A DNA stretch of 64,000 bases from Promethearchaeota archaeon (GTDB lineage: Archaea > Asgardarchaeota > Lokiarchaeia > Sigyniarchaeales > SOKP01). The notes beneath the pieces are model-generated. The model was not told the DNA's origin. It worked only from the letters and a program-made list of their open reading frames with translations, and did not search any database. The stretch is taken from assembly GCA_016839555.1 (NCBI GenBank), contig JAEOUA010000003.1, forward strand, positions 128,001 to 192,000. Reading direction: 5' to 3'. Every line of letters begins with the position of its first letter. Within the stretch, counting starts at the first letter, position 1. A program made the translations under genes and the position numbers. Shown here in pieces: positions 25,702 through 45,339 of this stretch.

Positions 25702-25890
25702 TTATCTCACTCTTAAAGCATATTTGCCTGGGATATGAATTTTTAAATATTCAGCTATCTTTGATTCTTCAGGCTTTATAATAATTACCTCTCCAGTAAA
25801 ATCGTCACTTAATGTATGAGTTTTACATTTTGGACAAACTTGTTCATTCTTAGTAATTAGGTGACAGTTTTTACATGCTTTTTCAGTCAT
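25702..25890 (-). CDS. spt4: Transcription elongation factor Spt4 (RpoE'')
   Basis: KACKNC......CPKC...LS.D..G.VII..PE.S.IA....PGKYALRV. Confidence 0.95.
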   Translation of the reverse strand: MTEKACKNCHLITKNEQVCPKCKTHTLSDDFTGEVIIIKPEESKIAEYLKIHIPGKYALRVR

Positions 25891-26148: not shown

Positions 26149-28680
26149 TTATCCTATATTTTCCAATACTTCTGTTAATACGATTGGAATGTCCACAATG
26201 TTCATAATATGAATAATTTCTCCTTGAGTTACATCTAAAATCAACTTAGCATAGTTTTTTATATAAGATCTTGAATTTACTCCTAATAAAAATTGAACTT
26301 GTTGATTCAAATATTCTTCTAATTCTTTTTTAATTACAGTTTCTCGCTCAGAAAAAGCACAATCTGTTAATAAAAAACATATTTTTCGCTCTGTTTGAGT
26401 CTTTTCTAATTCGCGTGCTCCCCAAGCTAAGGCTGCTTGCGCTTGAGTACCTCCTCTTGCCCTTAAATCTAGAAGTTCATCAGCAACATCTTCTAAACTC
26501 CTTGAATCACCAAATTTTTTTACTACATGGGTATTTGATTCAAAGAAACAGATCGCTACCTCATCAGCCCGCAAGCTACCAATCAAAACCATAACAGCAA
26601 TTGAACAAGCAGCAAGTTTCATTCCACTCATAGAACCTGAAATATCCAACAAGAAGCAGATTGAGACTCTTCCTTTTTCAGTTTGTCTGACTAATAAATC
26701 TTCGGCGGTAATCATTTCTACGGACTTTCCCTGCATTATTATATTTTCAATAGATGCATCTATATTGATTAAGTCAAAATCATCTCCTAATATGAATGGT
26801 CTTAATTGATTAGTTGGAATCAATCCCTTCTCACCGCTCCCTCTTTGATTAGAAATCATATTTAAAGCGATTTTAATAAGGGCATCTTTAACGAGATTCT
26901 TTACAAAATCTTTTAGATGTCGAGGAATTTGGTGTCGATGATAAAACCATTGAATTATTAGATTTTCACCTGGTCCAGCGCTAAGAGATTCTGCGACTCT
27001 TCTCTGAGCGTTTTGTCCATAACCAGCAGCTGACTTAAATGCATTACCAATATGGTGATGACTAAGGGCTCCTAATCCTTGAAAATTATCTAAATCTAAG
27101 GCGATCTTCATAAGTTCATTCATTTGTATTTGAGTTAATTTAATCTTTTTCATTATATTTGTATAGCGCTCAAAATTTCCAATATTTTGTTCATACATAG
27201 TTTTTAACAATTTATAATTACCTCCAAATATTTCAATTATTATTTCTTCTGTTATCCCAATCTTTTTCCCAATTTCAATGACTTTTTCTTGCTGTAGTGG
27301 AACTAGATTAGATATTAACGATTTAAGTACATTTTCAAATTGGTCTATGTCATCTGCTACTTCTAATGCTTTTATTCCAGCTTTTACGGCATTTTCAACG
27401 AGAGCATTATAACAAGATTCAAATTTTGCTTGATTAGATAAACTTATTAGTTTATTAGCTAAATCCGCAAGATCATAACTAGCTCTTCCGTTATTATTAA
27501 TATATTCAGTTATTTTTATATCAATAATGTTATTTAACATTGTTTTCCATTCATTTTTATCTGCTTGCGCTTGAAAAAGTTCTGGTAAAGAAGGAGATGG
27601 ATTTTTTTTTGCCCAAATGTCAAAAAATTCATTATTCAATTGGGATTTAAATCTTTTATCTAATGCTCTTGTTTGATTAAAGCCCATACCGGGATCTTTT
27701 CTAATAGTATTTGACATCACTTTTTTATGGTCAAATGATGGAATATAATCTAAAACATCCGATATTTCATAAATATCCATCATATCTTCAATCTTATTAA
27801 CTAATTCGTTAGCAAGTGTATCTAATTTTGATTTTTCCATTCCTAATTTTTTAAGATAGTTCAAAGAGCGTGCTGAAGCTCCAACATCTTCATTTTTAAT
27901 AATATTTTCAAGAGAATGTTGGAATTCAGGAGAATTCATCAAAAATTGAGCAGTAATATTGATCCAAGGTATGTTAGATTGATCTAAAATATCCTTTCCC
28001 CAATTAAGATTTGTAGCAGACTTAATATCTAATGGAGAGAGGTCGTTCATTTCTCTAAGTATAGTTTTATGACAATCATCTTTTAAGCTATTCACATCTT
28101 TTATTCCTTGCTCCAGAATATATCTATAATTATATCTCTGTTCAATAATATCTCTTAGACTTTTATAAGGCTCTTCATTTTGATCCGCTTTCTCATAAAG
28201 TTCATTAACAAAATCCATCAAACTGGATAAATCTTCTAGTGTTTTATCCATTAATTCTTCTGTATCTACATTTTCAATATCAAGTTCTGAATCAAAAATT
28301 TCTAAAAATTCATCCATAAAATCAGTTTTTTGATCAACTGATTTTATTGTTCCGGTTGTTTGCTGTTTTTTTTTATTTGATTTTTTTTCCTGCCCGAAAA
28401 TAATTTTAAAAGCGATTTCTCGAGCGATAGATTGATCCTCGACTGGTGTTGTAATGACGGCAGCTTTGATAAAATCATCGGGAATTAGTTCAAATTTTCG
28501 ATAATACATCGCCGTGATTAATTTAGGAATGGCAATAGCCTGCCGAGTGCTTGGAGTATTTTGTAATCTTCCTTTATTTCTTCTCATTTGATAAATAAAC
28601 TCAATAGCAAATGATATTGGTTTCCATTCTATAATTTTATTATTTACATAGTCACCAATATTTCCATAATCAATATCCAT
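26149..28680 (-). CDS. vWA-domain protein, likely MoxR partner
   Basis: C-terminal MIDAS motifs DISGSM, GGT and LTD; adjacent to the MoxR ATPase. Confidence 0.9.
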   Translation of the reverse strand: MDIDYGNIGDYVNNKIIEWKPISFAIEFIYQMRRNKGRLQNTPSTRQAIAIPKLITAMYYRKFELIPDDFIKAAVITTPVEDQSIAREIAFKIIFGQEKKSNKKKQQTTGTIKSVDQKTDFMDEFLEIFDSELDIENVDTEELMDKTLEDLSSLMDFVNELYEKADQNEEPYKSLRDIIEQRYNYRYILEQGIKDVNSLKDDCHKTILREMNDLSPLDIKSATNLNWGKDILDQSNIPWINITAQFLMNSPEFQHSLENIIKNEDVGASARSLNYLKKLGMEKSKLDTLANELVNKIEDMMDIYEISDVLDYIPSFDHKKVMSNTIRKDPGMGFNQTRALDKRFKSQLNNEFFDIWAKKNPSPSLPELFQAQADKNEWKTMLNNIIDIKITEYINNNGRASYDLADLANKLISLSNQAKFESCYNALVENAVKAGIKALEVADDIDQFENVLKSLISNLVPLQQEKVIEIGKKIGITEEIIIEIFGGNYKLLKTMYEQNIGNFERYTNIMKKIKLTQIQMNELMKIALDLDNFQGLGALSHHHIGNAFKSAAGYGQNAQRRVAESLSAGPGENLIIQWFYHRHQIPRHLKDFVKNLVKDALIKIALNMISNQRGSGEKGLIPTNQLRPFILGDDFDLINIDASIENIIMQGKSVEMITAEDLLVRQTEKGRVSICFLLDISGSMSGMKLAACSIAVMVLIGSLRADEVAICFFESNTHVVKKFGDSRSLEDVADELLDLRARGGTQAQAALAWGARELEKTQTERKICFLLTDCAFSERETVIKKELEEYLNQQVQFLLGVNSRSYIKNYAKLILDVTQGEIIHIMNIVDIPIVLTEVLENIG

Positions 28681-28758
28681 CTTTTATCAGTATGCTTTTC
28701 ATACTTTTTTTATAATATAATCCATAAATTAATTTGCTTAGAATTTATAGAAGAGGAA

Positions 28759-29667
28759 TTAAGCTACTCCAACAACTTTTGTTAATATCTTTCTCATAAA
28801 TTGGTCTACATTTCTTCCTGGGCGTAATTGAATGGAATCTGGTAGAATTAATTTTGCAGATTCTGCGATTAATTTATTATCAACCTTCACTTTAAGGCGT
28901 TGGGCTCTTTGTGAAACAAATCTAGCAATTCCAATGCTTGTTCGTAAGCTAGGTGGCTTTTCGACTTCTGAATCCTCCCTACACTGAATCATTAACTCTA
29001 TTATTTTTTCTTGAGTAAGCGCTGATAAATTATATTCAGGACAATTAGAAATCATAATTTTTTGTTCCAGCGATTTTGGAGGATATTCTAGATGTATCCA
29101 AACTTTTATTCTATCTTTAATAGCTGAAGGTAATTTCCGGGTTCCTTTTAATTCCGCAGGATTCATGGCAGCAATCACATAAAACTTATCTTTTGCTTTC
29201 AACCATGTCTTTAATTGAGGAATATATAGGCGACGTTCTTCCATAGCATCTAGCATACTATTTAATACATATTCATCTCCTCTATTTAATTCATTAGCAA
29301 GAAATACTCCTCCTTTAAGGGCTGCTAGTGAAAATGGGCCTGGTGTATAGGAATCAGGTGAAAATCCATATTTAAACACAAGAGAGGGATCGAAAGAACC
29401 AATTAATGTTGCTGGACGTACCAAATCGGAGAAAGTTATCCAATAAAATTCCTGATTTAGATCGTATGCAAATTTTCTACATAGAGCGGTTTTTCCACAA
29501 CCTACGGGTCCAACTAATCCCACAAATAATCCTGCATTATATGCATCCATCATTGCTTCGTATGCATATTTATACTGTCCCTCCAATACTAGATTAATTT
29601 CTTCTCGTATATCTACTATTTTGCTCTCTTCCATTAATTCTGAGAATTCTTTAATTTGTTTAGACAT
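28759..29667 (-). CDS. MoxR-family AAA+ ATPase
   Basis: GPVGCGKT, Walker B position LANELNR (Asn where Asp is usual), NSMLDAMEER, AAMNP, LP.A..DR and PSLR. Confidence 0.9.
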   Translation of the reverse strand: MSKQIKEFSELMEESKIVDIREEINLVLEGQYKYAYEAMMDAYNAGLFVGLVGPVGCGKTALCRKFAYDLNQEFYWITFSDLVRPATLIGSFDPSLVFKYGFSPDSYTPGPFSLAALKGGVFLANELNRGDEYVLNSMLDAMEERRLYIPQLKTWLKAKDKFYVIAAMNPAELKGTRKLPSAIKDRIKVWIHLEYPPKSLEQKIMISNCPEYNLSALTQEKIIELMIQCREDSEVEKPPSLRTSIGIARFVSQRAQRLKVKVDNKLIAESAKLILPDSIQLRPGRNVDQFMRKILTKVVGVA

Positions 29668-29746
29668 TTTTTTTTTTCTTAATTTTTTGGTTTTTTATTT
29701 CTCTATCTTTTTATATCTTTAATTTTAAAATTTTTTTGAATTTATT

Positions 29747-30271
29747 TTACTTTTTAAAAAAGCTCTCGGTTTCTGTTGGCTGAACAACTATTGGTAATTC
29801 ATAATTGAGTTTTTTAATAGCGCTAATTATTTTCTCGTATTCTTCTTGATTTAATACACTTTTGCGGGAAAAATCTAATTTTTCCATAATAAATTCTCCA
29901 AAGTAAGTGCGTTTAAGTTCTTGAATATAATATTTTTTCCCTTTTTTTTCTACTTGACAATTTTTAAGTTCTTCAATTCTTTTTAATAAGATTATTTTAA
30001 CAAGGGGTATCCAAATTTTATTTTTCTTTAATTCTTCAAAAATAAAATCCCTATGATTTAATTCCTCCTTTTTTACCATAGAAATAACCTCTTTTAAAAA
30101 GCTAATAAAGAATTGTCTTTCATAATTCTCTAAGGAATTAGTGCTATTAATTTTATTTTTAAGCTTTTGAAATATCTTTTCTATTTGTTGATTATTTGGG
30201 TCACTATAAAAGGTTTGAAATTCGGTTTTGAATTTAGTTAAAAAATTGATATATTTTTCTTCTTGCGACAT
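29747..30271 (-). CDS. Hypothetical helical protein in the Mre11/Rad50 locus
   Basis: 174-aa ATG ORF starting 27 nt after the Rad50-B stop. Confidence 0.75.
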   Translation of the reverse strand: MSQEEKYINFLTKFKTEFQTFYSDPNNQQIEKIFQKLKNKINSTNSLENYERQFFISFLKEVISMVKKEELNHRDFIFEELKKNKIWIPLVKIILLKRIEELKNCQVEKKGKKYYIQELKRTYFGEFIMEKLDFSRKSVLNQEEYEKIISAIKKLNYELPIVVQPTETESFFKK

Positions 30272-30298
30272 TTCATTAAATCTCTTAATTTTTTTTTT

Positions 30299-32818
30299 TT
30301 ATTTTTTTATTTCAATTTTATTATTACATTGAATTTTATCTATATCTTGATGAGTTATCAGAATAACTTGAGTAGAATCTGAAATATTTGATATATTTGA
30401 CAAAAGAGTTTTTCTATTATTTTCATCTATAAATTCGGTAGGCTCGTCAATTAAAAGAAATGTCGAATTTCCAATTATTTTATTTAAAGCGAATTTATAA
30501 GAAAGTCCAAGAATTAATTGATATCCTCCTCCTTCATAAACAGAAGCAGGATAATAAATTTTCGATTCCTTACCTTTTGGAATAACAGATAGACTATAAT
30601 CCTTATTATCAATACATACCTTTTCAAACTCATCTTCAGAAGAAAATAATTTATAACTTTTCAAAATATCTTCTTCTAAGGTTATAGAAACATTATTACG
30701 AATTATCTGTTGTACTTGTTTGAAGATCTGTTGAAAATTGCGATATTTTTCTGCTAATTCATATTTAGTGTGTAAAATTTGGATTTTTTTCTCTGTTTGC
30801 GCTATTTCTTTATCTAATCTTTTAATTTGCTTCTTAGTTTCATCAATATCTTCTGATATTTGTTCATTCTGTTGTTTAAGATGATTTAGAGTAGTAGAGA
30901 GTTCTGAGATTTTGAAAATAATTGCCTCTTTTAATTCATCTCTTATATGAAGTGCGTTTTCAAGATTTCTATTCGCTTCATAATCATTTATTTTCTTTAA
31001 AATTATTTCTAAAGTAGTAATGAAATTATCAGAACTATCTAAAGATTTTAAATTTTCTTTCAATTCATTTTTTAAATTTTCAAATAGTTTCGAGAGATCT
31101 GCTTTTTGCTGATTAAAATCTTCTTCCCCTTTTTTTTTCTCTTCCTGTATTATTGTTAATTTCTTTACGTATTCTTTATATTGATTTAAAAATGCTTTCG
31201 ACTCATTAAGTTTTTTACTAATTTCGTCATGTTCTTCTCTTATTGAATTTAATTTCTTCTGATTATTTTGTAATAATTTATTTTGCTCCTCTATATTATT
31301 ATTTAATTCTATAATATCCTTATTTAACCCATCCTCGAAGGAAGCATTTAAAGAATTTTCCATTTCATTAATTTTATTTATTAGATTATTTAACTTAATT
31401 TTTTCCTCAAATTGAGTCTTCTCTTCAACTCTTAATTGTAAAAAATTTTTATTAATTTCCTTTTTTTCTTGCTCTTGTTTGGCTAAATCTTTTTCTAAAT
31501 TTTGTAATTTTTCCTTACAATCTTTTATTTCTCGCAAAATTTTTGAGGAGTCTATAGGAGCGCCACAATATTCACAAGTTTGATTATTTTTATTTGATTC
31601 TCTTCTTTTTAATATTCCTTCTATATCGCCCTTTTCTCTTTCACTATTTCTAATAGAATTTTGAAGTTCTAATTGTAATTTCTCTAATTTGATTATTTCA
31701 TTTTTTATTTTTTTCAAATTTTCTTTAACTTTCTTAACTTTATCTTTTAGTTCTGTCTTTTCTCCATATTCATTTTTAAAAGAATCTAATTGTTTTAACG
31801 ATTTTTGCTTTTGTTTTTTAAGACTCTCCTTTTCTATCTTTAGAGTTTCATTCTCTCGAATTTGGTTATGGAGATGGGTAATATCTTCATTTAATTTAGT
31901 TTCTTTTATGTTTATTTCATTTAAATCTTGCTCAAGATTGGTAATTTTGGTTATTAAATCTGCCTCCGAACCATATTTTTTTGTATTTTCTTCTATATCC
32001 TTTAATGTCATCTCTTCTTTTATTTTGGTATCATTTATTTTCTTTTTAATATCTTCAAATGACTTAACTAAATCTCTAATTCTTTCAGAAAACTTTTTGA
32101 ATTTTTGGAATTTATTCAAATCATTATTATTACGAGCGATTTTAAAATTAATTTTTTCCTGCTTCTGCTTTTGAATTTCTAATTTTTTTTGATATTCTTT
32201 TTTTTCTTTCTGAGAATGGTCTAATGTGGCTTTAAAGGTATCGATTATTTTAACCTCTTTTTCAAAATCAAGGGCACGTTCTCTAAACGCATTTGATAAA
32301 GCAGTAGCTGTTTTAATGCCAAAAACAATATCTAACTTTTCATCACCCATTAATATTTTAGAAATTTCTCCCTGAGAAAAATGAATTCCTGCCTCAAAAA
32401 GTCGCTTAGAAATCCCAAGAAGTTCGTTTAATTTTAAAGATAAAACTCCCTCTGAATCTCCAAAATCTGTTGCTAAAAGATATTTTTCTTTATCTTTATT
32501 TATAATTTTTTTTAAGGTGAAAAATCCATTAGCAGAACGTGATTTTCCCTTTAATTTGTGCATTCTCTGTAATTTATAAATGTTATCATCTTTACCTTTA
32601 AAGATAAGCTCCACGCCCACAATATTTTGTTCAAATCGAGTCAATTGTGAAATACTTCGAAATCCTCGAACCATTCCAAAAAGAGCGTATTCTATAGCAT
32701 AAAATATTGTTGTTTTACCTGCATTGTTTTTTCCATGAATTAGATTGAAGTGTTCATCTAAATGTATATTTAAGTCTTCATGTCTTCTAAAGTTTTTTAA
32801 TTTTATTGATTTAATCAT
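30299..32818 (-). CDS. Rad50/SbcC-like SMC ATPase B (degenerate signature)
   Basis: Walker A GKNNAGKTT, Q-loop FSQGEI, central CEYC, signature position YEGGG, Walker B LLIDEPT, ITH; ATG at 32818. Confidence 0.9.
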   Translation of the reverse strand: MIKSIKLKNFRRHEDLNIHLDEHFNLIHGKNNAGKTTIFYAIEYALFGMVRGFRSISQLTRFEQNIVGVELIFKGKDDNIYKLQRMHKLKGKSRSANGFFTLKKIINKDKEKYLLATDFGDSEGVLSLKLNELLGISKRLFEAGIHFSQGEISKILMGDEKLDIVFGIKTATALSNAFRERALDFEKEVKIIDTFKATLDHSQKEKKEYQKKLEIQKQKQEKINFKIARNNNDLNKFQKFKKFSERIRDLVKSFEDIKKKINDTKIKEEMTLKDIEENTKKYGSEADLITKITNLEQDLNEINIKETKLNEDITHLHNQIRENETLKIEKESLKKQKQKSLKQLDSFKNEYGEKTELKDKVKKVKENLKKIKNEIIKLEKLQLELQNSIRNSEREKGDIEGILKRRESNKNNQTCEYCGAPIDSSKILREIKDCKEKLQNLEKDLAKQEQEKKEINKNFLQLRVEEKTQFEEKIKLNNLINKINEMENSLNASFEDGLNKDIIELNNNIEEQNKLLQNNQKKLNSIREEHDEISKKLNESKAFLNQYKEYVKKLTIIQEEKKKGEEDFNQQKADLSKLFENLKNELKENLKSLDSSDNFITTLEIILKKINDYEANRNLENALHIRDELKEAIIFKISELSTTLNHLKQQNEQISEDIDETKKQIKRLDKEIAQTEKKIQILHTKYELAEKYRNFQQIFKQVQQIIRNNVSITLEEDILKSYKLFSSEDEFEKVCIDNKDYSLSVIPKGKESKIYYPASVYEGGGYQLILGLSYKFALNKIIGNSTFLLIDEPTEFIDENNRKTLLSNISNISDSTQVILITHQDIDKIQCNNKIEIKK

Positions 32819-33140
32819 CTCTAATTTGCTCCATTTCATCCCTTTCTTCTAATATATCTAATTCAAAAATTTCTTTTATTCTTTGGTGCAATTGAATGCG
32901 CGCGTCCTTTACTAATTTAAAAGTTTTAGTAAGATTATTCTCATCATCATATAAATAGTTAGCAAATTCAAATAAACGTACGAGATCGTTTTTTTCATTC
33001 TCAGATAATATAAATTGTGCCAATATCTCTAAAAGGTCGAATTTGAAGCTCATTATAGAAACCATTCTTTTTATTGATTTGTCTTTAATTTTGGTAATAA
33101 AATAATTATAAAAATTAATATAAAAATTATTATTAATCAA
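32811..33140 (-). CDS. Small helical protein between the two Rad50 genes
   Basis: Stop overlaps the Rad50-B start; true start may be ATG 33065 or 33053. Confidence 0.65.
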   Translation of the reverse strand: MINNNFYINFYNYFITKIKDKSIKRMVSIMSFKFDLLEILAQFILSENEKNDLVRLFEFANYLYDDENNLTKTFKLVKDARIQLHQRIKEIFELDILEERDEMEQIRDD

Positions 33141-35854
33141 CTAATTTTAGTTAAATAATTGACTTCTGTCTGTTCATTATCATCTTTTGTCAACTTAATA
33201 ACATATTCACTATGGCGCTTAAAAGAATCATCATGAGAAATAACAAATAATTGATTAAAATTTCTTGAGACATCATTAATATATCTACTGAGATTATTTT
33301 TAGAATTTTCATCAAGATTTATAGTTGGTTCGTCAAAGATCGCAAAGTTAGCAGAGGTTAATGTTTTTAAGATAGCAAGTCTCACTGCTAATGCAGCAGA
33401 CATTTTTTCGCCTCCAGATAATCTTAAAAATCCTTTCTTAGTTCTTGCTTTAATAATTTCGATTTCATAATTCTTGTTCCATATTAATGAGGTGTTTTGG
33501 TCCCCACGGATATTTCTATATATATTTGATGCGTATCTATTTACTTTCTTTATTAATTCCACTCTCATTTTAGGTTTAAATTCTCGTATCCATACACGTA
33601 TTTTCTTCACGAATTTTTGTTCAGCTTTCAAATTTAACTCTTTATTTTGGAATTCTTCGAGTTTTTTTTCCTTATCTTCTAATTTTTTAATAGATTCATT
33701 AACATCATCAAATTGTTCTTCAATATTATTTAAATTTTCTTTCAATTTAATGACCATTTCATGCTTCTCATCAAATTCTTTTTTAAGCTTATCAAAATTT
33801 TCCTCATCAAATTCTTTTTCATATTTTTTCTTTTCCTTTAATTTTTGCTGAGATAGATTTATGATGTTTTCCAATTTATTTTGAGATTCTAATACTTTTT
33901 GCTTTCTATTCACCAATTTTTCTGCTTCATTGATATTTTTTTGGAATTTGTTATATTGAATTTCTAAATCATTCAATTCTTTCCTTATTTTTGCTAATTT
34001 TGATGGAATTTTTTCTTTTTTGTTTATTTCCTGATTAAATATAGTTCTTTTTTGTTCTAGTTCTTTTAATTTAGTTTTAAGGGGTAAAAGATTATCTTGA
34101 ATTTTTTGGAGACTTTGAGCATTTTTGTTATGGATTAAGTATTGATCATAAAAAGTATTTAATTCTTCTATTTGTACTTTAAGGTTATTTTTAGAATTGA
34201 TAAGTTCTTCTTTTTGCGATATGTTTATTTCTATTTCGATAACATCTTCTTTTAAATTTTTTAAATGTTTTTCATATTCTTCAAGTGTAATTAATTTTTT
34301 TTGTAATCTTTCGATTTCAGTTTGGATTTTAGATTTGTTTTTTAATTTATCCTGAATTTCATTGAATTCATTACGTTTTAATCGTAATTCTTTCTTTTTC
34401 CCTTTTATTTCTTTTTTAAAACCTTCAACATTAAAATTTCCTTCTTGTAGATCTGTACATTTTTTACCTGAAAATGGACAGAGTTTATTTTCAATCTTAT
34501 TTTGATTATTTTGATAAAATGAAAGATCATTTTCTATACTTGACATTTCTAATAGTAAAGAATCTTTAATTTTTTCAAGGTTTATGATTTTTTTATGCTC
34601 TTTTTGTATATGTAATAATCCGCTTATTTCATTTCTTAATAAGGCTATTTCTTGGTTTAAATTTGAAATTTTTTTTTTATTTTTTTCTAAAATATTTTCA
34701 CTAGAATCGATTATAGCTAACTTTTTATTTAGTTCTTGTAATTCATTCTTAAAACTTAAAAGTTGCTGATATTTTGGTTCAATTTCTTTTAGTTTTTCTT
34801 TTGAAAATTGAGCGTCTTTTATTTTGTCTTCAAGATTAGTGTATTGATGTTTAATTTCTTGATATTTCTGATTTAATTGGTTTAATTGATCTTTTTGCTG
34901 TGTTAATTCGTCATTTTGAGTTATAAAATTATTTTTAATTTTATAAAGAGATATATATTTTTCATAAGCATTTTTGGTATAATTGCAGATCTTCTCTGCT
35001 TTAAAAGACTCATTCAATTGTTGTTGGAGAGTTTTTAAATTTTCCTCTTCCTTTTTTTTCTCAAAGTTTAATTGATTATTATCTATGGTAATAGTTTCTA
35101 ATTTTTTTTTTAAATCTTTAAGCTTTTCAAGTTTATCTTTAATAATCTTTCTCCTTTTTTTAGATTTTTCTAGCTTTAACGATGTATCTTTCATTTTTTC
35201 GATAAGATTTTCTTGTGCTTTTTGTTTTTCTTCCTTTTCCTTAGTTTCGCCTATTAATTCGCTAATTTTTTTTTGAATTTCAATCAATTTTTCTTTATAT
35301 TTTCTTTCAATTATTCCTAAATTCTCCCAAAATTTTTCATAGATATCTAATTGAAAAATTTCATCAAAATATTCCTTCCTTTCCTTTGGACTCATTAAAA
35401 AACTGTTAATGATCATCCCTTGGGGTATGCCTATTGCTGTGTTAAATAATGTTTCTAGATTCACATCATATTTTACACCAATTTGCTTTTTTATCCAAGA
35501 TTTAAATTTTGAAATAGTATCTATATCAGGTGAAAGAGATTTACCTTTATCATTAGTTACTTGTATATCACTTCGTCCAATAGTGCGTATAATGCGATAT
35601 ATTTTACTATCTGCTCCACTTATCCAGATTTTTACTGTTCCATAGGAAGGTCTCTCGTTTTCAACTGCTCTTATATAGTCTGAATGATGAGTTTTAGACT
35701 TTAAAAAATCGAACAACACGAACCCAATCATTTCAAGAACAGTAGATTTTCCAGCCCCATTATCACCATAAAGAACATTTAATCCTTCTTTAAAAGATAT
35801 AGATGTATTCTTATGGGTTTTAACATTTTTTATTTCTATTTTTCTAATTATCAT
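33137..35854 (-). CDS. Rad50/SbcC-like SMC ATPase A
   Basis: Walker A GDNGAGKST, Q-loop IPQG, central CPFSGKKC, LSGGE, FDEPT.NLD, ISH; ATG at 35854 follows AAGGGGG. Confidence 0.93.
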   Translation of the reverse strand: MIIRKIEIKNVKTHKNTSISFKEGLNVLYGDNGAGKSTVLEMIGFVLFDFLKSKTHHSDYIRAVENERPSYGTVKIWISGADSKIYRIIRTIGRSDIQVTNDKGKSLSPDIDTISKFKSWIKKQIGVKYDVNLETLFNTAIGIPQGMIINSFLMSPKERKEYFDEIFQLDIYEKFWENLGIIERKYKEKLIEIQKKISELIGETKEKEEKQKAQENLIEKMKDTSLKLEKSKKRRKIIKDKLEKLKDLKKKLETITIDNNQLNFEKKKEEENLKTLQQQLNESFKAEKICNYTKNAYEKYISLYKIKNNFITQNDELTQQKDQLNQLNQKYQEIKHQYTNLEDKIKDAQFSKEKLKEIEPKYQQLLSFKNELQELNKKLAIIDSSENILEKNKKKISNLNQEIALLRNEISGLLHIQKEHKKIINLEKIKDSLLLEMSSIENDLSFYQNNQNKIENKLCPFSGKKCTDLQEGNFNVEGFKKEIKGKKKELRLKRNEFNEIQDKLKNKSKIQTEIERLQKKLITLEEYEKHLKNLKEDVIEIEINISQKEELINSKNNLKVQIEELNTFYDQYLIHNKNAQSLQKIQDNLLPLKTKLKELEQKRTIFNQEINKKEKIPSKLAKIRKELNDLEIQYNKFQKNINEAEKLVNRKQKVLESQNKLENIINLSQQKLKEKKKYEKEFDEENFDKLKKEFDEKHEMVIKLKENLNNIEEQFDDVNESIKKLEDKEKKLEEFQNKELNLKAEQKFVKKIRVWIREFKPKMRVELIKKVNRYASNIYRNIRGDQNTSLIWNKNYEIEIIKARTKKGFLRLSGGEKMSAALAVRLAILKTLTSANFAIFDEPTINLDENSKNNLSRYINDVSRNFNQLFVISHDDSFKRHSEYVIKLTKDDNEQTEVNYLTKIS

Positions 35855-35867
35855 CTTATAATCCCCC

Positions 35868-37442
35868 TTAAATATTAAGATCTCCATCATCAATAATTTC
35901 ATCAATATCTAAATTCTCATCGCCTTCACCATCAATATCTAATAAATTTTTAAATTCTCCCAACTCTTTAGAAAACTCTTCTTCCCACATCTTATCTATA
36001 TTCATTTGCTTCGATATTTTACTTATTTTCTTCTTTTTTTTCTTTTTTGGATTTTTGAATTTTTCTTGTTTTTTAACAATATTTTTAAGTTCTTGGAAGA
36101 TATCTTGATGAAGATTGAACCAATTATTAATATCACTTTTAATAACCTTATAATCAGCATTCTGGGTAAGTTTCTCTTTTAATTGATTTAAGATGAGTTG
36201 GGAAATTTCTTCTTTATGTTCCCGAAAAGTTTCTTCATTTTTTATAGTTGTTAAGAGTGCTTCTTCTTCGATTTTATCAAAACTCCACTCATCATTCATA
36301 TCAAATTCCTCTTCCATTTTAGAAAAGATTTGGTTATTTATTTTCAAACCTAATATTTCAAATGTGTCAAAAATTTTGATTCTTAATTCTGCTAGATCAA
36401 TTTCTAATTCAGAATAGCCCGTTTCACCTTTTATAGAGAGATATAGAACAGGAACATCAAGATTACTTAATAATGGATTAGAATCACTCCTTTCAGGAAC
36501 ACCTAGTTTTCTAAGTTTATCTATTATCATTATTTCAGCTTCTTCAAATGAATTAGATTCTGAAATATCTATAGAAGAAAATGATAAAAATCTTCTATTG
36601 GGAATAGAATAAGCGTCATAAGTATTTCCATTTTCACATAATATTGATTTTACCCTAAAATTGTTATTTTCATCTGGAAATATTTCCACTAAAAAAATTC
36701 CACGGCCTTCGGCGTATTCGTTAATTTCATTAATTTCAAGGCTTCCCGGATTAAATATCCACGGTTGATTTTCGGGTAATTGATATTGTTTATGAAAATG
36801 TCCCAAAGCTAAATAATCAACCTTCTTGTGTAGATCTTGAAGATTTTCAGTTAAATCATATCCTTTTTTTCTTTTATCTTGCCCATTTATCCCAAAATGC
36901 ATCATTAAAATAATGAATTTATCATTCTCTTGAATTTCTTTCCTAATTAAAGGATATAATTCTGGAGTTGAACTCCCAAAATAACTCATTCCATAAATCA
37001 CGGCATTTTTAATCTCTATCTTTCCTCCAATATGATCCCTAGGGGAAAAATTAGCAAACTTAATACTATTAGAATGATAATCATAAGTTCCTGAAAGTAA
37101 AATTATTAAATCTAAATCAGCCAATAATTTCAACCATGTATGTTCTGAAAAGAATGGAGTTTCATGATTACCTTCTATACATATAATAGGTATTACTCTT
37201 TCTATTGTTTCTTGACATTTTATTTGAAAATCTCTTATTGTCTTTATAATATTAATTAATGTAGATGGATTGATCTTACGCTCGTTATCGATTAAATCAC
37301 CGCTAATTAAAACGAAATCAACTTCTTCAAAAATTGCCTTGTTTAATACCCATTCAAATGCTTTGAAAAAATCGTAATATCTTTGAGTGATATTATAAAG
37401 TGTTTTTCCCAAATGTATATCTGCCGCATGTATAAATTTCAA
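35868..37442 (-). CDS. mre11: Mre11/SbcD-family nuclease
   Basis: Phosphoesterase motifs DIHLG, GDLID, GNHE, MMH, ALGHFH and NPGS.E. Confidence 0.92.
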   Translation of the reverse strand: MKFIHAADIHLGKTLYNITQRYYDFFKAFEWVLNKAIFEEVDFVLISGDLIDNERKINPSTLINIIKTIRDFQIKCQETIERVIPIICIEGNHETPFFSEHTWLKLLADLDLIILLSGTYDYHSNSIKFANFSPRDHIGGKIEIKNAVIYGMSYFGSSTPELYPLIRKEIQENDKFIILMMHFGINGQDKRKKGYDLTENLQDLHKKVDYLALGHFHKQYQLPENQPWIFNPGSLEINEINEYAEGRGIFLVEIFPDENNNFRVKSILCENGNTYDAYSIPNRRFLSFSSIDISESNSFEEAEIMIIDKLRKLGVPERSDSNPLLSNLDVPVLYLSIKGETGYSELEIDLAELRIKIFDTFEILGLKINNQIFSKMEEEFDMNDEWSFDKIEEEALLTTIKNEETFREHKEEISQLILNQLKEKLTQNADYKVIKSDINNWFNLHQDIFQELKNIVKKQEKFKNPKKKKKKKISKISKQMNIDKMWEEEFSKELGEFKNLLDIDGEGDENLDIDEIIDDGDLNI

Positions 37443-37457
37443 TGTTAATACTCTCCC

Positions 37458-40400
37458 CTATTCTTTATATCTTAATCTAACTTCTTGAATAATATTATTA
37501 AACTTGTTTTTTATTTGAAGAGGCAGTTCTTTGTTACAAAATTCTTCTACGTACATATAAATTTTTGAAGAATTCTTAATAAGCTCCCTTTCATTGGGAA
37601 TATACTGTATAAATTTGTCGCTAGAAATAAATATGAGTTTATTTTTTGCTCTTGAAGTTAATACATTAAATCTATTTAAATTATATATAAAATCATCTTC
37701 CATTTGCAATTTATCCTCATCCGACAACCCTATGGAACAAATTATTAAATCTCTGTCAGAGCCTTGGAATTTCTCCACAGAATAAACTGTATCTTTTAAA
37801 AGTTGCATTAATTTAGATCTTGATAATTTTGTAAAGAGCTTAAATAAATTATATAACTTTCTAATAATAGTACGCCCTTGGGCATTATGTGGTGCCACCA
37901 CCCCAACTTGTTCAGACCAAAATCTAATTTCCTCTTTTCTATTTGAAGGAGCCACCATTATATAAAATCCTTTAACAATTTCAGCAACGATTTGAGCCTC
38001 AAAAAGGCTAATTCCAATTTCAAATTGTTCATTATGAATAATTGAGCATGCTACCCTCTTTGGGAGTAAAATTTCCTTTAACCATAATTTATTAATATTG
38101 CTTAGATTCCCCTGAAGGGTACTTTTTGCATTTTGCTCATATGCCTGTAAATCCTCGTATAAACCCAAAAGAGAGGTAAATTCAACAATATCTTTATGAG
38201 AACGATAATTAACTTTTAATTGTTTACTAGAAATGTTATGCCCCTCAACATAATACCTAAAAACATTATCTAAAATTAATTCAAGGTTTTTCGGTGGCTT
38301 TTTAACCCTCACAGGCGATAATTGATTATGATCTCCAACAATTACTATTTTAGTAAGAGATTCTGGGGATATTTTGTTGTTAGCGATTATTAAAGGATCA
38401 ATCAAGTTCTTGTCATTAATCAATTTTTTTGAAAGCATATCAGTAGGTTTTTCAATAGTAATTTTTGGTTTTTTAATAAATTGCAAACTTGACATAAAGT
38501 AATCTGCTGGCATTTGACTCGCTTCATCCACAAAAATTAAATCGAAAGCAAAATTATCTGCAACCCTCTCCGTTAAATGATATAATTGATGAGCATTCGC
38601 AAAGATAATGAAATTATTTTCTAAAGATTCCTCTAATAAAATAGTGTTAGTCACTGATCTGGGTTTTCCATTTAATTTCCAAGTATTTCCATCTTTCATT
38701 AAATCATCTATATCTCTACATTTCGGGATCTTAGGTATGGGATTTTGTGTACTAGAATGAATAAATATCATCTGGAGCTTTGATGAGGGAGTTTGTTTTC
38801 CAAATATATCTTTACTTTTCCGGATTTTATCTATTATAACTCTTAGTGCTGCATAAGAAAAAGAAGTGATGAGTATTTTAATTGATTTATTTTGCTTAGT
38901 CCGCCTTATAACATATTCATCAATAAAAGCGGCTATAGTCTGAGATTTACCTGTGCCGGGAGGGCCCAATATGGCTGATATTATATTATAGAGAGAATTT
39001 TTTATTGCTTCTTTTTGAGAAGGATCCGGAGTAGGGGCGATTTTTGTAAACAGATGGGGTTCCTTTAACTGCTTATTAAAGTGCTTTAATAATAATGGGG
39101 CAAATAAATAAATTGAGGGAGTTGTAAAAGACCAATTATACGGCCATTTTAATTTGGGCTTAATCCTAAGATTCCATAGAAAAGCTAATCTTGCTCCTAA
39201 CCAAGATTGCCCAAAATTTTCTCTTTGTAGTAAACCATTATTATTTCGACAGTTATATAATTTATTAGACCATGAATCGGGACTAATAGGATAGATATAC
39301 CATTCTTCTTTTACCGGATCTATTCCCTCTTCACTGCAAATATTGTATACATTATTAGATGTTGGTTTTGTAGTTATAATATATCCTCCAATTGATGGAT
39401 CCCATTTTATATCATTAATAGATATAATCCATTTAAAAACTCTATTATCAATTTTCAATCCCCTTTTGGAATTGGGAATTAACAATACTCTATTACCCTC
39501 TTGGATCTTCATATTACAGGAAAGTCCAATAAGAGTAAATTTATATTTTAATGATTTACCTTCTAAATCTATTATTTCAAGGTGTTGTATTCTAGCAGAA
39601 GATAATTTCCCGATACTGAAATCTGGAAACATTGTTCTATAATATTCTTCATCTTGCTGCTGTAAAGCATTATTAAGTCTTGAGAATAAATACCAAACAT
39701 GAGAAATATCATGATATTCAGAGGGTAAAATTGCACTTTTATAATCATGTCGACTAATTGTCCTTGCGTTTTCAGAAAGAGCTGTATTTCCTTCTTTTTG
39801 AAATTTAGAGCGGATTTGATCAATTACATGAAGTTTAAAAATAATTTGCTTTCTAATAATGTTTAATTTTTTCTTCTTTTTCTCTGGATCTTTTTCCCTT
39901 AAATATAATAACCAATTAGCAAGATCCAAGAAATTAAAATGAGGAATCCAGTACATTTTTGTATTTATATTTAATTTAAATAATTTTTTAGCAATGCTAT
40001 GCCAAGTATAATTGATTATATCTGGAAATCCAACACAAGTTTCCGCAAAACTTTGAACGTCAAATAATTTTTTATGTTGATAAGGATTACTGACTTCAGT
40101 ATCTGAGGGCGTAAAATACATTAAAATAGCTTCATAAGCAGCTCTTGCTTTTGTATTACTAATAACTACATTTAAATTTCTCTGTAGCATATCTTGAAGA
40201 TGTTCTAATTGATTTCTAGACCAATAAAAAATGCTTGTGTCTGGACCGATATAATATTTTCCATATTTCCCATTTATATCAATAACAATAAAATCCTCAA
40301 TGATATTGCACATCTGTAATACCAAGTTCAATCTTAATATGGTAGTAATGGTTAGATCAGCTTCACTTTCATTGGTAATATCTTCGTTCACCTTCGCAAA

Positions 40401-41933
40401 TCTATACATTATACTGCTTCCCGCACTTGTTTTTTCACCTCTTAATGAGATCTCAACGGTTTTTAATTTTTTTAAACAATTTAAAAATAAGTCAACAATC
40501 TCTATTGGGATTTCTCTTATTAAATAATCATTCAACTCTCCTTGAATTTCTTTAGTGGATTTATTTTCTTCAAGTCCGTTTTTCCAAATTCTCCACCAAT
40601 TATCGAAAATACCATGATATTTTAGTTTAGATGATATAAACATTTTTAAAAGGATACCTACAGCAAATATTCTATCCGTATTTCTATCATACTCAACATC
40701 AAAATTGATTCTAATAGGGGAATATCTAGGAATTGAATAGGAATAGATCTGAGTATTTTTTGGATACACTAATCTTTTGTTTTTTAACGCTTTTATTTTT
40801 AGTTTTAAATTTGGTAGTTCGGAATAAAGAGGTTTAGGAATATTATCAATTTTTATTTTATCAAAATTTTTTATTAGATCTCCAATAGTTTTGAAATTGA
40901 ATTCATTTATTAATTGTTGAGCAATCGATTTTGAAGTAAAGGGGATTAATTTTATTGACCAATTTTCGGGGTCATTTTTTTCCTTCATTCCTAATGTTGC
41001 TTTACAATCCTCTATAAATTGACAATATCCACATCCATCATGAATATTTGTTTTAATTTGATTAATTGGACATGGTGATTTTTTCCATAATTCTTTTACA
41101 ACCTTTATTACTTGATTATAAATTCGATTAGCTTCTTTCCAACTGACCAAATTAACTAACTCATTGTTAAATAAATCTTCTATAGAACTAATGGTTTTAA
41201 GTTCCTCCTCTCCCCTCAAAGATAATATCCCATTAAAATTTGCTCTTACATAATAGATATTTTCTAAACCTATATGTTTTAAATAAAAAGCTAGCGTTTT
41301 TAGATAATAAAATATCTCTAAAAAATGCTTTTTACCTACATTCTCTTCATTTGTATATTTAATATCAAAAATCGATATTCCTAATCGTTCATTTTCTTTT
41401 TCTTTTGGAATTTTTTGAATACTCCCATCAGCTAAAATCTCGTACAAAGATTCAACATATTTATTTAATCCATTGCCAATAAAAATTAGATCTGGCCTCT
41501 GAGAGGAATATTCAACAGGAATATCTCTGAATTTTGCTTTATGCATAAAAATAGGATAAAAAAAAGAACGTGGTATTTCGAATTCATATTCTAATAGTAG
41601 GATGAGAGAATTCGAGATATTATTTTTTAATTTTGTGCTGAAATTAATTAAAATATTTGGATATAAATAAGAGTCTTCTATTTCTCCATCATATTCTCTA
41701 AAGTACGTATTGTTCAGTTTTTTTAAGTATGAATAAACAATTTGTTCATATTCTTTTCCTTTTTCTTTTAAGTATTTGGTTTGAAAAATTAATCGTTCAG
41801 GAGGAGTTGAAGGGATTGGCCTTAGTGGATTAAACCATAAATCAGGATGATCTCGACCCAATTCTAAAAATAATCTTCTCTTGCAATTCGTAAGAATATA
41901 ACTTTGTAATAAGATCTTATTAAATTTGGCCAT
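37458..41933 (-). CDS. Dna2-like nuclease-helicase: Cas4/RecB-type nuclease, RNase H-like domain, Upf1-like SF1B helicase
   Basis: N-terminal Cys, RPDL, DIK, CGYCQFIEDC and FDVEYD; helicase motifs GPPGTGKS, DEASQ, GDHNQL.P, NYRSH, PHNAQ, VEKFQGSDRD and NR.NV..SRA. Confidence 0.88.
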   Translation of the reverse strand: MAKFNKILLQSYILTNCKRRLFLELGRDHPDLWFNPLRPIPSTPPERLIFQTKYLKEKGKEYEQIVYSYLKKLNNTYFREYDGEIEDSYLYPNILINFSTKLKNNISNSLILLLEYEFEIPRSFFYPIFMHKAKFRDIPVEYSSQRPDLIFIGNGLNKYVESLYEILADGSIQKIPKEKENERLGISIFDIKYTNEENVGKKHFLEIFYYLKTLAFYLKHIGLENIYYVRANFNGILSLRGEEELKTISSIEDLFNNELVNLVSWKEANRIYNQVIKVVKELWKKSPCPINQIKTNIHDGCGYCQFIEDCKATLGMKEKNDPENWSIKLIPFTSKSIAQQLINEFNFKTIGDLIKNFDKIKIDNIPKPLYSELPNLKLKIKALKNKRLVYPKNTQIYSYSIPRYSPIRINFDVEYDRNTDRIFAVGILLKMFISSKLKYHGIFDNWWRIWKNGLEENKSTKEIQGELNDYLIREIPIEIVDLFLNCLKKLKTVEISLRGEKTSAGSSIMYRFAKVNEDITNESEADLTITTILRLNLVLQMCNIIEDFIVIDINGKYGKYYIGPDTSIFYWSRNQLEHLQDMLQRNLNVVISNTKARAAYEAILMYFTPSDTEVSNPYQHKKLFDVQSFAETCVGFPDIINYTWHSIAKKLFKLNINTKMYWIPHFNFLDLANWLLYLREKDPEKKKKKLNIIRKQIIFKLHVIDQIRSKFQKEGNTALSENARTISRHDYKSAILPSEYHDISHVWYLFSRLNNALQQQDEEYYRTMFPDFSIGKLSSARIQHLEIIDLEGKSLKYKFTLIGLSCNMKIQEGNRVLLIPNSKRGLKIDNRVFKWIISINDIKWDPSIGGYIITTKPTSNNVYNICSEEGIDPVKEEWYIYPISPDSWSNKLYNCRNNNGLLQRENFGQSWLGARLAFLWNLRIKPKLKWPYNWSFTTPSIYLFAPLLLKHFNKQLKEPHLFTKIAPTPDPSQKEAIKNSLYNIISAILGPPGTGKSQTIAAFIDEYVIRRTKQNKSIKILITSFSYAALRVIIDKIRKSKDIFGKQTPSSKLQMIFIHSSTQNPIPKIPKCRDIDDLMKDGNTWKLNGKPRSVTNTILLEESLENNFIIFANAHQLYHLTERVADNFAFDLIFVDEASQMPADYFMSSLQFIKKPKITIEKPTDMLSKKLINDKNLIDPLIIANNKISPESLTKIVIVGDHNQLSPVRVKKPPKNLELILDNVFRYYVEGHNISSKQLKVNYRSHKDIVEFTSLLGLYEDLQAYEQNAKSTLQGNLSNINKLWLKEILLPKRVACSIIHNEQFEIGISLFEAQIVAEIVKGFYIMVAPSNRKEEIRFWSEQVGVVAPHNAQGRTIIRKLYNLFKLFTKLSRSKLMQLLKDTVYSVEKFQGSDRDLIICSIGLSDEDKLQMEDDFIYNLNRFNVLTSRAKNKLIFISSDKFIQYIPNERELIKNSSKIYMYVEEFCNKELPLQIKNKFNNIIQEVRLRYKE

Positions 41934-42289
41934 AAATCAAATCTTAATTTTTATAGTATTAATTTAATACCTAGCTTTTGATTTATAATATAGGACTTAG
42001 TAAGTTTATTGTTAAAAATAAAGAAAAATAATAGGAAATCAACATATAGATTTCTTTTTATGAAAATTTGTTTATTTATTTGTAGAACTCATTAATTCCG
42101 TAATGAAAGCTTTAAGATTATGTCTATTTTAACTCAGAAATAAGGCTTGGTCTTGATAATATGCATTTATGATATTTATATTTCATAATCTTTAATTTCT
42201 TTCTATTCTAGTGAATATTTTTAAGCTTGGTCACACAGAGTACTTCGTAATATTTATATATGATGGCTGATTTGTTATTTTTAATAAAG

Positions 42290-42308
42290 TACTTTGTATA
42301 ATAAAGTA
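42290..42308. promoter_or_regulatory. Inverted repeat, candidate operator for the downstream wHTH operon
   Basis: TACTTT-N7-AAAGTA, overlapping the palindrome AAAGTACTTT, about 140 bp upstream of the first gene. Confidence 0.4.
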
Positions 42309-42446
42309 ATAAGAAAGATTATTCTACATATTATTAATAAATAGTTCTAATCACATTTAGGATATATTTTTTTAATATCTAAGAATGAAATAAAAATGAA
42401 AATTAAAAAGGATAGTTGAATTCAAATTTAGAAGTGATATATAAAA

Positions 42447-44736: not shown

Positions 44737-45339
44737 TTAAGAGCTTTTTTCTTCTGCTATATCTTTTTTAGCGCCTTTAGTTTTTTTCTCTTCATAAAAG
44801 TCCTCAATATCTTCGCTAATCCACTCTTCTTTCCCTAAAAATGGGCTTCTCATAGAGAGCCCTAACTTTCCACTTCTGCCCCCTCCCAAAGATACCGCTA
44901 TCACTTTCGCTCTTATAGTATCATTCACTTCTAATATTTTTCCTGTTTCCTTTCCAATAAATCTATTCCCTACTTGTTCATACGAGATGTAATCATCACA
45001 TATTTGACTCACATGAACAAGGCCATCTAATGGCCCTAAGCGAATAAAAGCACCAAAATCTACGATTTCCACCACATTTCCTTCTACAATTTCTGATACA
45101 GTAGGTTTGAAGGTTAAAATCGTAAATTTTACTTCATGAAAAGTATTGGCGTTTCCAGGAATAATTTGCCCCGAAGAAACAGAAATCACATCCACCACAG
45201 CTATAATAAAACCATATTCACGAGTGATAACACCTTCATAATCCTCACTTAAAATGATTCTGGCTGATGTGGTTTTATCTTGATGGAAAAGAAATGGAGG
45301 GATTTCAATCTTCCCTTCAATACTTATCAGCTTAAACAT
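44737..45339 (-). CDS. rpoE1: RNA polymerase subunit E' (Rpo7)
   Basis: IPP..F, EG.VVEIVDFGAFIRLGP.DGLVHVSQI, RAKVIAVS and MR.PFLGK.EW. Confidence 0.95.
   Translation of the reverse strand: MFKLISIEGKIEIPPFLFHQDKTTSARIILSEDYEGVITREYGFIIAVVDVISVSSGQIIPGNANTFHEVKFTILTFKPTVSEIVEGNVVEIVDFGAFIRLGPLDGLVHVSQICDDYISYEQVGNRFIGKETGKILEVNDTIRAKVIAVSLGGGRSGKLGLSMRSPFLGKEEWISEDIEDFYEEKKTKGAKKDIAEEKSS

Follow-up and report, generated by a model that had tools for sequence, protein, structure and literature searches.

We analyse a run of eight genes at positions 26149-41933 of a 64,000-nucleotide window (G000:C1:128001-192000) of a lokiarchaeial genome assembly (G000; 3.74 Mb, 12 contigs, 92% complete), and find that it is a composite of two conserved modules and not one indivisible system. 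Module A encodes a Dna2-like nuclease-helicase, Mre11 and a Rad50 protein (Rad50A), and module B encodes a small open reading frame (sORF1), a second Rad50-like protein (Rad50B), another small frame (sORF2), a MoxR-class AAA+ ATPase and a von Willebrand factor A (vWA) protein. The feature is real and conserved, and no account of it turned up in the literature that could be searched; judged from its genes, it most probably comprises modules for the processing of DNA ends. In eukaryotes, breaks are resected by Mre11-Rad50 together with Dna2 or Exo1, and the textbook archaeal version of the process uses Mre11-Rad50 with HerA-NurA. How NurA was lost or replaced (by Exo1 or Dna2) toward eukaryotes is described as unresolved in a 2026 review (PMC13748450). 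A Dna2-like enzyme encoded in an operon with Mre11-Rad50 would make this replacement testable using purified proteins; the trio operon of module A occurs in the archaeal group closest to eukaryotes, where one contig interleaves it with herA and nurA.

Two conserved modules in one gene run

The preliminary description of this DNA listed eight co-oriented genes with the domain identities given above, and we recover all of them. Taking coordinates from the list of open reading frames and identities from Pfam, NCBIfam and PADLOC models, we find that eight co-oriented minus-strand frames fill the interval, with module A and module B arranged head-to-tail. Read along the minus strand, the features are:

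41934..42446, no strand: AT-rich non-coding region of ~510 nt, 5' of the Dna2-like gene (open reading frame list, sequence); presumed promoter region of module A
37458..41933, minus strand: Dna2-like nuclease-helicase, 1491 aa (Pfam AAA_11/AAA_12, motifs, fold comparison)
35868..37442, minus strand: Mre11, 524 aa, TTG start (Metallophos 6e-17; NCBIfam Mre11_Pyroc 101 bits)
33137..35854, minus strand: Rad50A, likely start ATG 35854 in the frame 33137-35905 (NCBIfam PRK03918 208 bits)
33054..33136, no strand: AT-rich spacer of 83 nt with TATA-like runs at the module junction (sequence; sORF1 start by alignment); possible internal promoter
32811..33053, minus strand: sORF1, 80 aa, start ATG 33053 in the frame 32811-33140 of 109 codons (11 orthologs)
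30299..32818, minus strand: Rad50B, 839 aa, start ATG 32818 in the frame 30299-32839 (~95 bits to Rad50 models; motifs)
29747..30271, minus strand: sORF2, 174 aa (ortholog alignment; structure model)
28759..29667, minus strand: MoxR-class AAA+ ATPase, 302 aa (AAA_5 7e-20, AAA_3; GvpN model 64 bits)
26149..28680, minus strand: vWA protein, 843 aa (VWA_2 1e-10; MIDAS alignment)

Of the spacing first reported, the gaps of 15, 13, 27, 79 and 78 nt stand, and the overlap of the first small frame with Rad50A falls away, because 11 orthologs place the sORF1 start at ATG 33053, 83 bases from Rad50A. Rad50B, whose length of 839 aa is also that called in public gene data, overlaps the sORF1 stop by 8 nt.

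Comparison with other genomes separates the two modules. The trio Dna2-like-Mre11-Rad50A is strictly kept in 21 of 41 related genomes, with variable flanks. The full eight-gene order, whose conservation had been put forward as a check, recurs in two genomes of the same genus (G002, G005), in one of another genus (G012), partly in G001, and also in the metagenome contigs L182, L186 and L195. Among the genomes whose loci were read, at least nine others, from three families, carry the trio alone with different flanks each time. Module B likewise stands by itself in G014 and G024, where it lies on a different contig from module A, and in L180, L181, L183, L188, L192, L200 and L202. More than 20 contigs preserve its internal order, even where Rad50B identity falls to 33% (L179). 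In the more distant archaeal contigs L173, L175 and L177 the Dna2-like gene is again joined to Mre11-Rad50, and L167 carries, on one strand, DUF8166, HerA, Mre11, Rad50, the Dna2-like gene and NurA.

Because module B and the trio each stand alone in other genomes, the eight genes do not make up the single system first proposed for them. The strongest form of that proposal would be one obligate eight-subunit machine, in which Rad50A pairs with Rad50B as an asymmetric heterodimer and none of the eight proteins works without the others. It is consistent with the tight spacing, with an eight-gene order conserved in one clade, with the enrichment of B in A-positive genomes, and with the degenerate signature of Rad50B, which in a mixed head dimer would leave one normal and one impaired ATP site. 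We nevertheless consider it highly improbable: most carriers of the trio lack B, six genomes have B and no Dna2-like gene, the modules lie on different contigs in G014 and G024 and far apart in the closed genome G171, and the two hooks differ (CX6C in Rad50A, CXXC in Rad50B).

The modules do adjoin too often for chance, and Lokiarchaeia have joined them repeatedly. Module A is followed by B in the window, L182, L186 and L195, and B by A in L196; in L179 the two are convergent, with a ligase-like gene between them, and in L178 they are divergent and MoxR-vWA is missing. Of 400 phylum genomes, 50 have the Dna2-like gene and 21 have Rad50B, and 15 of these 21 also carry the Dna2-like gene (odds ratio 25, Fisher p 1e-10, both overstated since the genomes are related and not independent). 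Four independent adjacent layouts in distant lineages, together with this strong co-occurrence at the genome level, argue against the idea that the modules are accidental neighbours of unrelated function, joined by rearrangement. That idea can point to modules that are often apart and, in the window, to the spacer with its TATA-like runs between them; we rate it as improbable.

The window flanks are housekeeping genes (Rpb7/RpoE, Spt4, S24e and Kae1). Spt4 (25702-25890) and Rpb7/RpoE (44737-45339) bracket the eight genes, and in G008 (L040) these two genes are adjacent to each other with the trio just upstream of both. From this comparison, the same housekeeping spot hosts a module in two genera, with slightly differing insertion points.

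Proteins of the two modules

In its predicted structure, the largest protein of module A has a Dna2-like architecture with an added exonuclease-like domain. A whole-model Foldseek search with the model of its N-terminal 960 aa (residues 1-960; predicted local distance difference test, pLDDT, 79.6) gave no match at E <=0.001, so that alignment at the level of domains was needed (VIA-align). Residues 1-330 (3-330 in the aligned model) correspond to an iron-sulphur (Fe-S) PD-(D/E)xK nuclease of the Cas4/Dna2/AddB type (Cas4 Z 8.9, root-mean-square deviation, rmsd, 4.1 over 196 aligned residues; Dna2 Z 6.9; AddB Z 6.5), residues 405-770 to a DEDD exonuclease fold of the family-B-polymerase/RNase T type (Z 13.2, rmsd 3.0, 181 aligned), matched by the exonuclease domain of Pol alpha/Pol II at Z ~13, and residues 775-885 to a 1B barrel of the Upf1/Sen1 type (Sen1 Z 8.4); residues 970-1450 are a superfamily 1B (SF1B) helicase by Pfam (AAA_11/AAA_12). 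Across 23 homologs, C17, D148, D190, K192, C301, C304 and C310 are invariant or nearly so, which is the Cas4/Dna2/AddB Fe-S nuclease signature, and the helicase motifs GPPGTGK and DEASQ are kept. The protein thus has the four-cysteine Fe-S PD-(D/E)xK nuclease N-terminal to the motor, as in Dna2, and the C-terminal Upf1-like SF1B helicase with a 1B barrel. In a single-sequence search its best PDB match is mouse DNA2 (E 2.5e-8). When the family profile is compared with the PDB, Upf1 (53.6 bits) and Dna2 (51.9 bits) score effectively equally, so that orthology to eukaryotic Dna2, which would call for a closer match to Dna2 than to other Upf1-like helicases, does not follow. A figure legend in a 2025 paper (PMC12680538) notes, in a replisome context, an apparent relationship between eukaryotic Dna2 and some Asgard homologs.

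The family is rare, with 364 of 1.84 billion cluster representatives matching the N-terminal profile at E <=0.001. A genome-collection scan with the Dna2-like alignment, swamped by the generic Walker A pattern, recovered two full-length bacterial relatives, and scans of a virus collection with a few peptide patterns confirmed no relatives, either for the N-terminal part of the Dna2-like protein or for Rad50B. This genome also encodes a 1605-aa paralog (G000:C5:176618-181354; L047 15171-19988) with 34-46% identity and no adjoining Mre11 or Rad50; solo paralogs of this type occur in G001, G009 and G012. A bacterial-type homolog in L171 (6104-12361) directly follows a beta-CASP/metallo-beta-lactamase nuclease gene. 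In L079 (147-14536; a Proteobacteria metagenome-assembled genome, SYOX01000094.1), a full-length bacterial homolog with 33% identity is the last gene of a co-oriented run, after BrxC-like (DUF6079), PglZ, a small frame and a DEAD/Cas3-like helicase; by its gene content, this is a BREX-like locus with a nuclease-helicase.

The Mre11 of the window is of the archaeal type: a calcineurin-like phosphoesterase with N-terminal DxH motifs (the N-terminus reads IHAADIHLG), encoded beside Rad50. It scores 81-101 bits with NCBIfam Mre11 models, below their equivalog cut-offs, and its best PDB match is P. furiosus Mre11 (87 bits). Its C-terminus (35868-36200) is ~100 aa longer than that of other archaeal Mre11 proteins, and the extension contains eight lysines in a row (within KNPKKKKKKKKISK) and, after them, a strongly acidic tail that could be the ligand for a metal-ion-dependent adhesion site (MIDAS). 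Rad50A reaches its 208 bits to PRK03918 over positions 1-868 and matches M. jannaschii Rad50 in the PDB (88 bits); Walker A, the Q-loop, the LSGGE signature and Walker B are intact, with a long coiled coil, and the motifs are kept in 12 orthologs. Its hook is CPFSGKKC (CX6C), not CXXC, and gives no match to the Pfam model Rad50_zn_hook. The same CX6C hook, as CP(F/I)xxxxC, is found in 11 of the 12 orthologs, and G032 alone has CPVC. We considered a eukaryotic-type Mre11 or Rad50 and rejected it, as the best PDB matches are Pyrococcus and Methanocaldococcus proteins.

The preliminary description found neither herA nor nurA within the window, which we confirm, and suggested looking for a separate herA-nurA-mre11-rad50 locus. 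Such an operon is present on contig C11 (G000:C11:21017-27377; L013 6018-12377), with herA (580 aa), nurA (402 aa), mre11 (439 aa) and rad50 (696 aa, CPTC hook). Operons of this type occur in only six of the 41 relatives, fewer than carry the trio, and are absent from the other genomes of the genus, and for this reason the C11 operon looks acquired. The archaeal Mre11 model gives 31 bits for the C11 Mre11 against 102 bits for that of the window; taking C11 as the normal operon and the trio as the extra was rejected on this score and on the rarity of the C11 type. A third type, consisting of a ~376-aa gene without assignment followed by HerA-like, Mre11 (~430 aa) and Rad50 (~700 aa) genes, is found in G006, G007, G016, G019, G020 and G021. 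In the closed genomes G032 and G033 the Mre11 of the trio is the sole Mre11 match, and G032 and G038 have a herA-nurA pair at another place in the genome. Lokiarchaeia carry interchangeable Mre11-Rad50 modules; within this order, the trio is the most frequent.

In module B, the Rad50 paralog Rad50B has a canonical zinc hook (CEYCG, CXXC) and keeps the Walker A, Q-loop, Walker B and H-loop motifs, and in every ortholog YEGGG stands in place of the LSGGE signature; one weak Rad50B-like match is found in Myxococcota. Its neighbour sORF1 is helical, with a conserved NLTKT core and a variable acidic tail (11 orthologs), and is predicted to bind the coiled-coil base of Rad50B. The complex model places it on Rad50B residues 160-181 and 670-706, with an interface score (ipSAE) of 0.68 against 0.00 for the best control, contacts that agree by at least 82% between runs and a partner pLDDT of at least 73. 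In calibration, 58 of 80 solved complexes and 2 of 110 mismatched pairs attained this mark, counts that hold only roughly for sORF1-Rad50B, which was modelled from our own alignments in a three-chain job. In solved Mre11-Rad50 structures, this place is occupied by the helices with which Mre11 binds Rad50; if the complex is real, sORF1 would be a nuclease-free stand-in for Mre11.

The second small protein, sORF2, is modelled as a helical bundle with a small alpha/beta C-terminal domain (pLDDT 87). It has no Foldseek match and its best VIA Z is 5.4 among 48,161 chains, so that no fold is assigned. Its C-terminal 80 aa resemble residues 700-779 of protein X (BLASTP E 1e-7), the third gene of a paralogous MoxR-vWA-X system, and it is this resemblance that ties sORF2 to the MoxR-vWA pair. 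The paralogous system is present in most relatives; its copy in this genome (G000:C5:518677-524474; L073 2677-8474) lies ~6 kb from an SMC gene (1481 aa), and protein X itself, ~780-800 aa long and without a Pfam family, has a SWIM-like C...CxH motif at its N-terminus and the sORF2-like domain at its C-terminus.

The last two genes form a MoxR-vWA pair, with a MoxR-class AAA+ protein beside a vWA protein with the motif DxSxS...T...D. MoxR is 67-97% identical across module B loci and has GPVGCGKT as Walker A; in Walker B, which is LANE in both paralog families, the Glu is retained. The bpMoxR model, for the ATPase of MoxR-vWA-beta-propeller and related ternary conflict systems, in which VMAP, iSTAND or beta-propeller proteins are the third component, gives 17.8 bits against a cut-off of 27. 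The vWA protein consists of a 660-aa N-terminal region of no known family and a C-terminal vWA domain in which the MIDAS is intact and conserved in the alignment (DISGS...T...D). Neither this N-terminal region nor sORF2 has a Pfam match, VMAP and iSTAND included, and the third component beside MoxR-vWA in the window is of no known family.

A proposed role at DNA ends

With moderate confidence, we read the locus as two separable modules that act on the same substrate, in DNA-end processing or repair, and not as a defence island. Proteins of the Mre11-Rad50 family bind and clip DNA ends, and both modules would act on broken or free ends. Module A would be the resection unit: Mre11-Rad50A would bind and clip the ends, the Dna2-like protein would load on the 5' strand, its SF1B motor would translocate while the Fe-S nuclease degrades that strand, and 3' tails would be left for RadA. 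The polymerase-type exonuclease fold may serve in 3' end trimming or have a structural role. Module B would be a nuclease-free Rad50-like zinc-hook tether, with sORF1 on the coiled-coil base of Rad50B and with sORF2, MoxR and vWA as an AAA+ remodeller. The MIDAS of the vWA protein may grip an acidic ligand, for example the tail of sORF1 or of Mre11, and the remodeller would in this way load, reset or strip the Rad50-type complex.

A further proposal is a lokiarchaeial resection and end-handling kit in which the Dna2-type nuclease-helicase works directly with Mre11-Rad50, and the MoxR/vWA motor loads or strips another Rad50 complex that has no nuclease. We put it forward tentatively and regard it as doubtful. 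Were it true, module A would be the archaeal precursor of eukaryotic resection by MRN plus Dna2, and module B, which couples a DNA tether of the Rad50 type with a motor that remodels proteins (a combination for which our literature search found no description), a prokaryotic counterpart to the AAA+-driven removal of repair factors at DNA ends. If the family were also the sister of eukaryotic Dna2, the swap from HerA-NurA to Dna2 would have begun inside Asgard archaea.

Another gene with a possible bearing on DNA ends recurs beside either module (L175, L179, L180/L198, L195):

L175 15024-16703; L179 12063-13748; L180 20230-21762; L195 14042-15073: divergent ATP-dependent-ligase-like gene

It has a partner of 205-242 aa, except in L195, where only the ligase was found, and in L180 a PNK3P-family gene lies close to it, as does one for a UvrD-type helicase. 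Neither the ligase-like gene nor its small partner has a tblastn match in the present genome (92% complete).

Several observations weigh against a common role in end processing. The Dna2-like gene is patchy, being present in 50 of the 400 phylum genomes and in 11 of 90 high-quality ones, a distribution that would also fit an accessory or a defence role. Its full-length bacterial homolog in L079 follows BrxC-like, PglZ and DEAD-helicase genes, and L173 adjoins a methyltransferase/Eco57I gene, an IS66 transposase and a group II intron. Six of the 21 B-positive genomes show no Dna2-like gene and in G171 the modules are 3.4 Mb apart, so that B needs no adjoining A. Finally, the sORF1-Rad50B model may partly echo the solved Mre11-Rad50 structures.

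Some of these points favour anti-virus or anti-plasmid defence, in which the Rad50-type proteins would sense free or foreign ends, the Dna2-like protein would be the effector that shreds the invader, and MoxR-vWA would be the switch, a part that has been proposed for it in conflict systems. The patchy distribution and variable flanks, the bacterial homolog in a BrxC-like/PglZ locus, the restriction-type methyltransferase and mobile elements beside L173 and partial PADLOC matches (MkoA, DpdJ, LmuB) all fit this picture, as do the description of MoxR-vWA conflict systems (10.1101/2025.10.09.681413) and the reported presence in Lokiarchaeia of ProA/Prometheus, a single-protein defence system with a DNA2-type nuclease domain (PMC13700489). 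We judge defence unlikely on what stands on the other side: no PADLOC effector or partner model matches and the ProA score is far below its cut-off, the neighbours in the window are housekeeping genes, in L167 a herA-mre11-rad50-nurA operon encloses the Dna2-like gene, ligase-like and PNK3P-family genes are close by, and the trio holds the sole Mre11 found in two closed genomes. End processing by two separable modules remains the reading we prefer.

Comparison with known systems

PADLOC and NCBIfam models return only generic helicase and SMC matches for the eight proteins and no named system; the partial PADLOC matches are to the helicase models MkoA and DpdJ and to the SMC-like LmuB. In the literature, as far as it could be searched, we found no description of either module, no Asgard operon of Dna2 with Mre11, and no combination of Rad50 with MoxR-vWA of this kind, in agreement with the preliminary description, which knew of no system with this gene set. 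That description also raised a Lamassu-type sensor. Lamassu (LmuA-LmuB-LmuC) does share a Rad50/SMC-like ATPase with small partners, and the LmuB model matches both Rad50 proteins at 1e-26 to 1e-29; both score better as Rad50, however, and the LmuA and LmuC models match none of the eight proteins at E <=0.01, so that the sensor reading gains no specific support. Prometheus (ProA) resembles the Dna2-like protein in its DNA2-type nuclease domain and Upf1-like helicase and in being reported from Lokiarchaeia. Membership was rejected, as the window protein scores 32 bits against a ProA cut-off of 1500, over residues 955-1008 only, and has no DUF4011 or DUF3320 Pfam match.

The adjoining MoxR and vWA/MIDAS genes of module B are of the class of NorQ-NorD, CbbQ-CbbO, RavA-ViaA and GvpN, with GvpN as the top NCBIfam match. 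They differ in their presumed client, here a Rad50-like zinc-hook ATPase with two small partners, and in the 660-aa N-terminal region of the vWA protein. For module A, the bacterial helicase-nucleases AddAB, AdnAB and RecBCD likewise resect ends by means of a motor to which a Cas4/AddB-type Fe-S nuclease is coupled; the window protein, in contrast, is a single polypeptide with an SF1B and not an SF1A motor, and is encoded with Mre11-Rad50. Such enzymes can act in repair and in defence alike; in bacteria, RecBCD and AddAB serve both repair and the degradation of foreign DNA.

The archaeal herA-mre11-rad50-nurA operon (Sulfolobus, Pyrococcus) likewise encodes Mre11-Rad50 with a motor and a 5' strand nuclease, and in L167 the Dna2-like gene lies inside such an operon. 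In the window, motor and nuclease are one SF1B/Fe-S polypeptide and not a HerA hexamer with a NurA dimer, and this genome retains herA-nurA-mre11-rad50 elsewhere (C11). Eukaryotic Dna2, a partner of MRN/MRX in long-range resection, shares with the window protein the Fe-S PD-(D/E)xK nuclease at the N-terminus, the SF1B helicase after it, and the pairing with Mre11-Rad50. Of the eukaryote-like parts list first suggested for the locus, the architecture is therefore borne out and the identity with Dna2 is not, since Upf1 and Dna2 score alike and the window protein has, between nuclease and helicase, an extra polymerase-type exonuclease fold of ~360 aa that Dna2 lacks.

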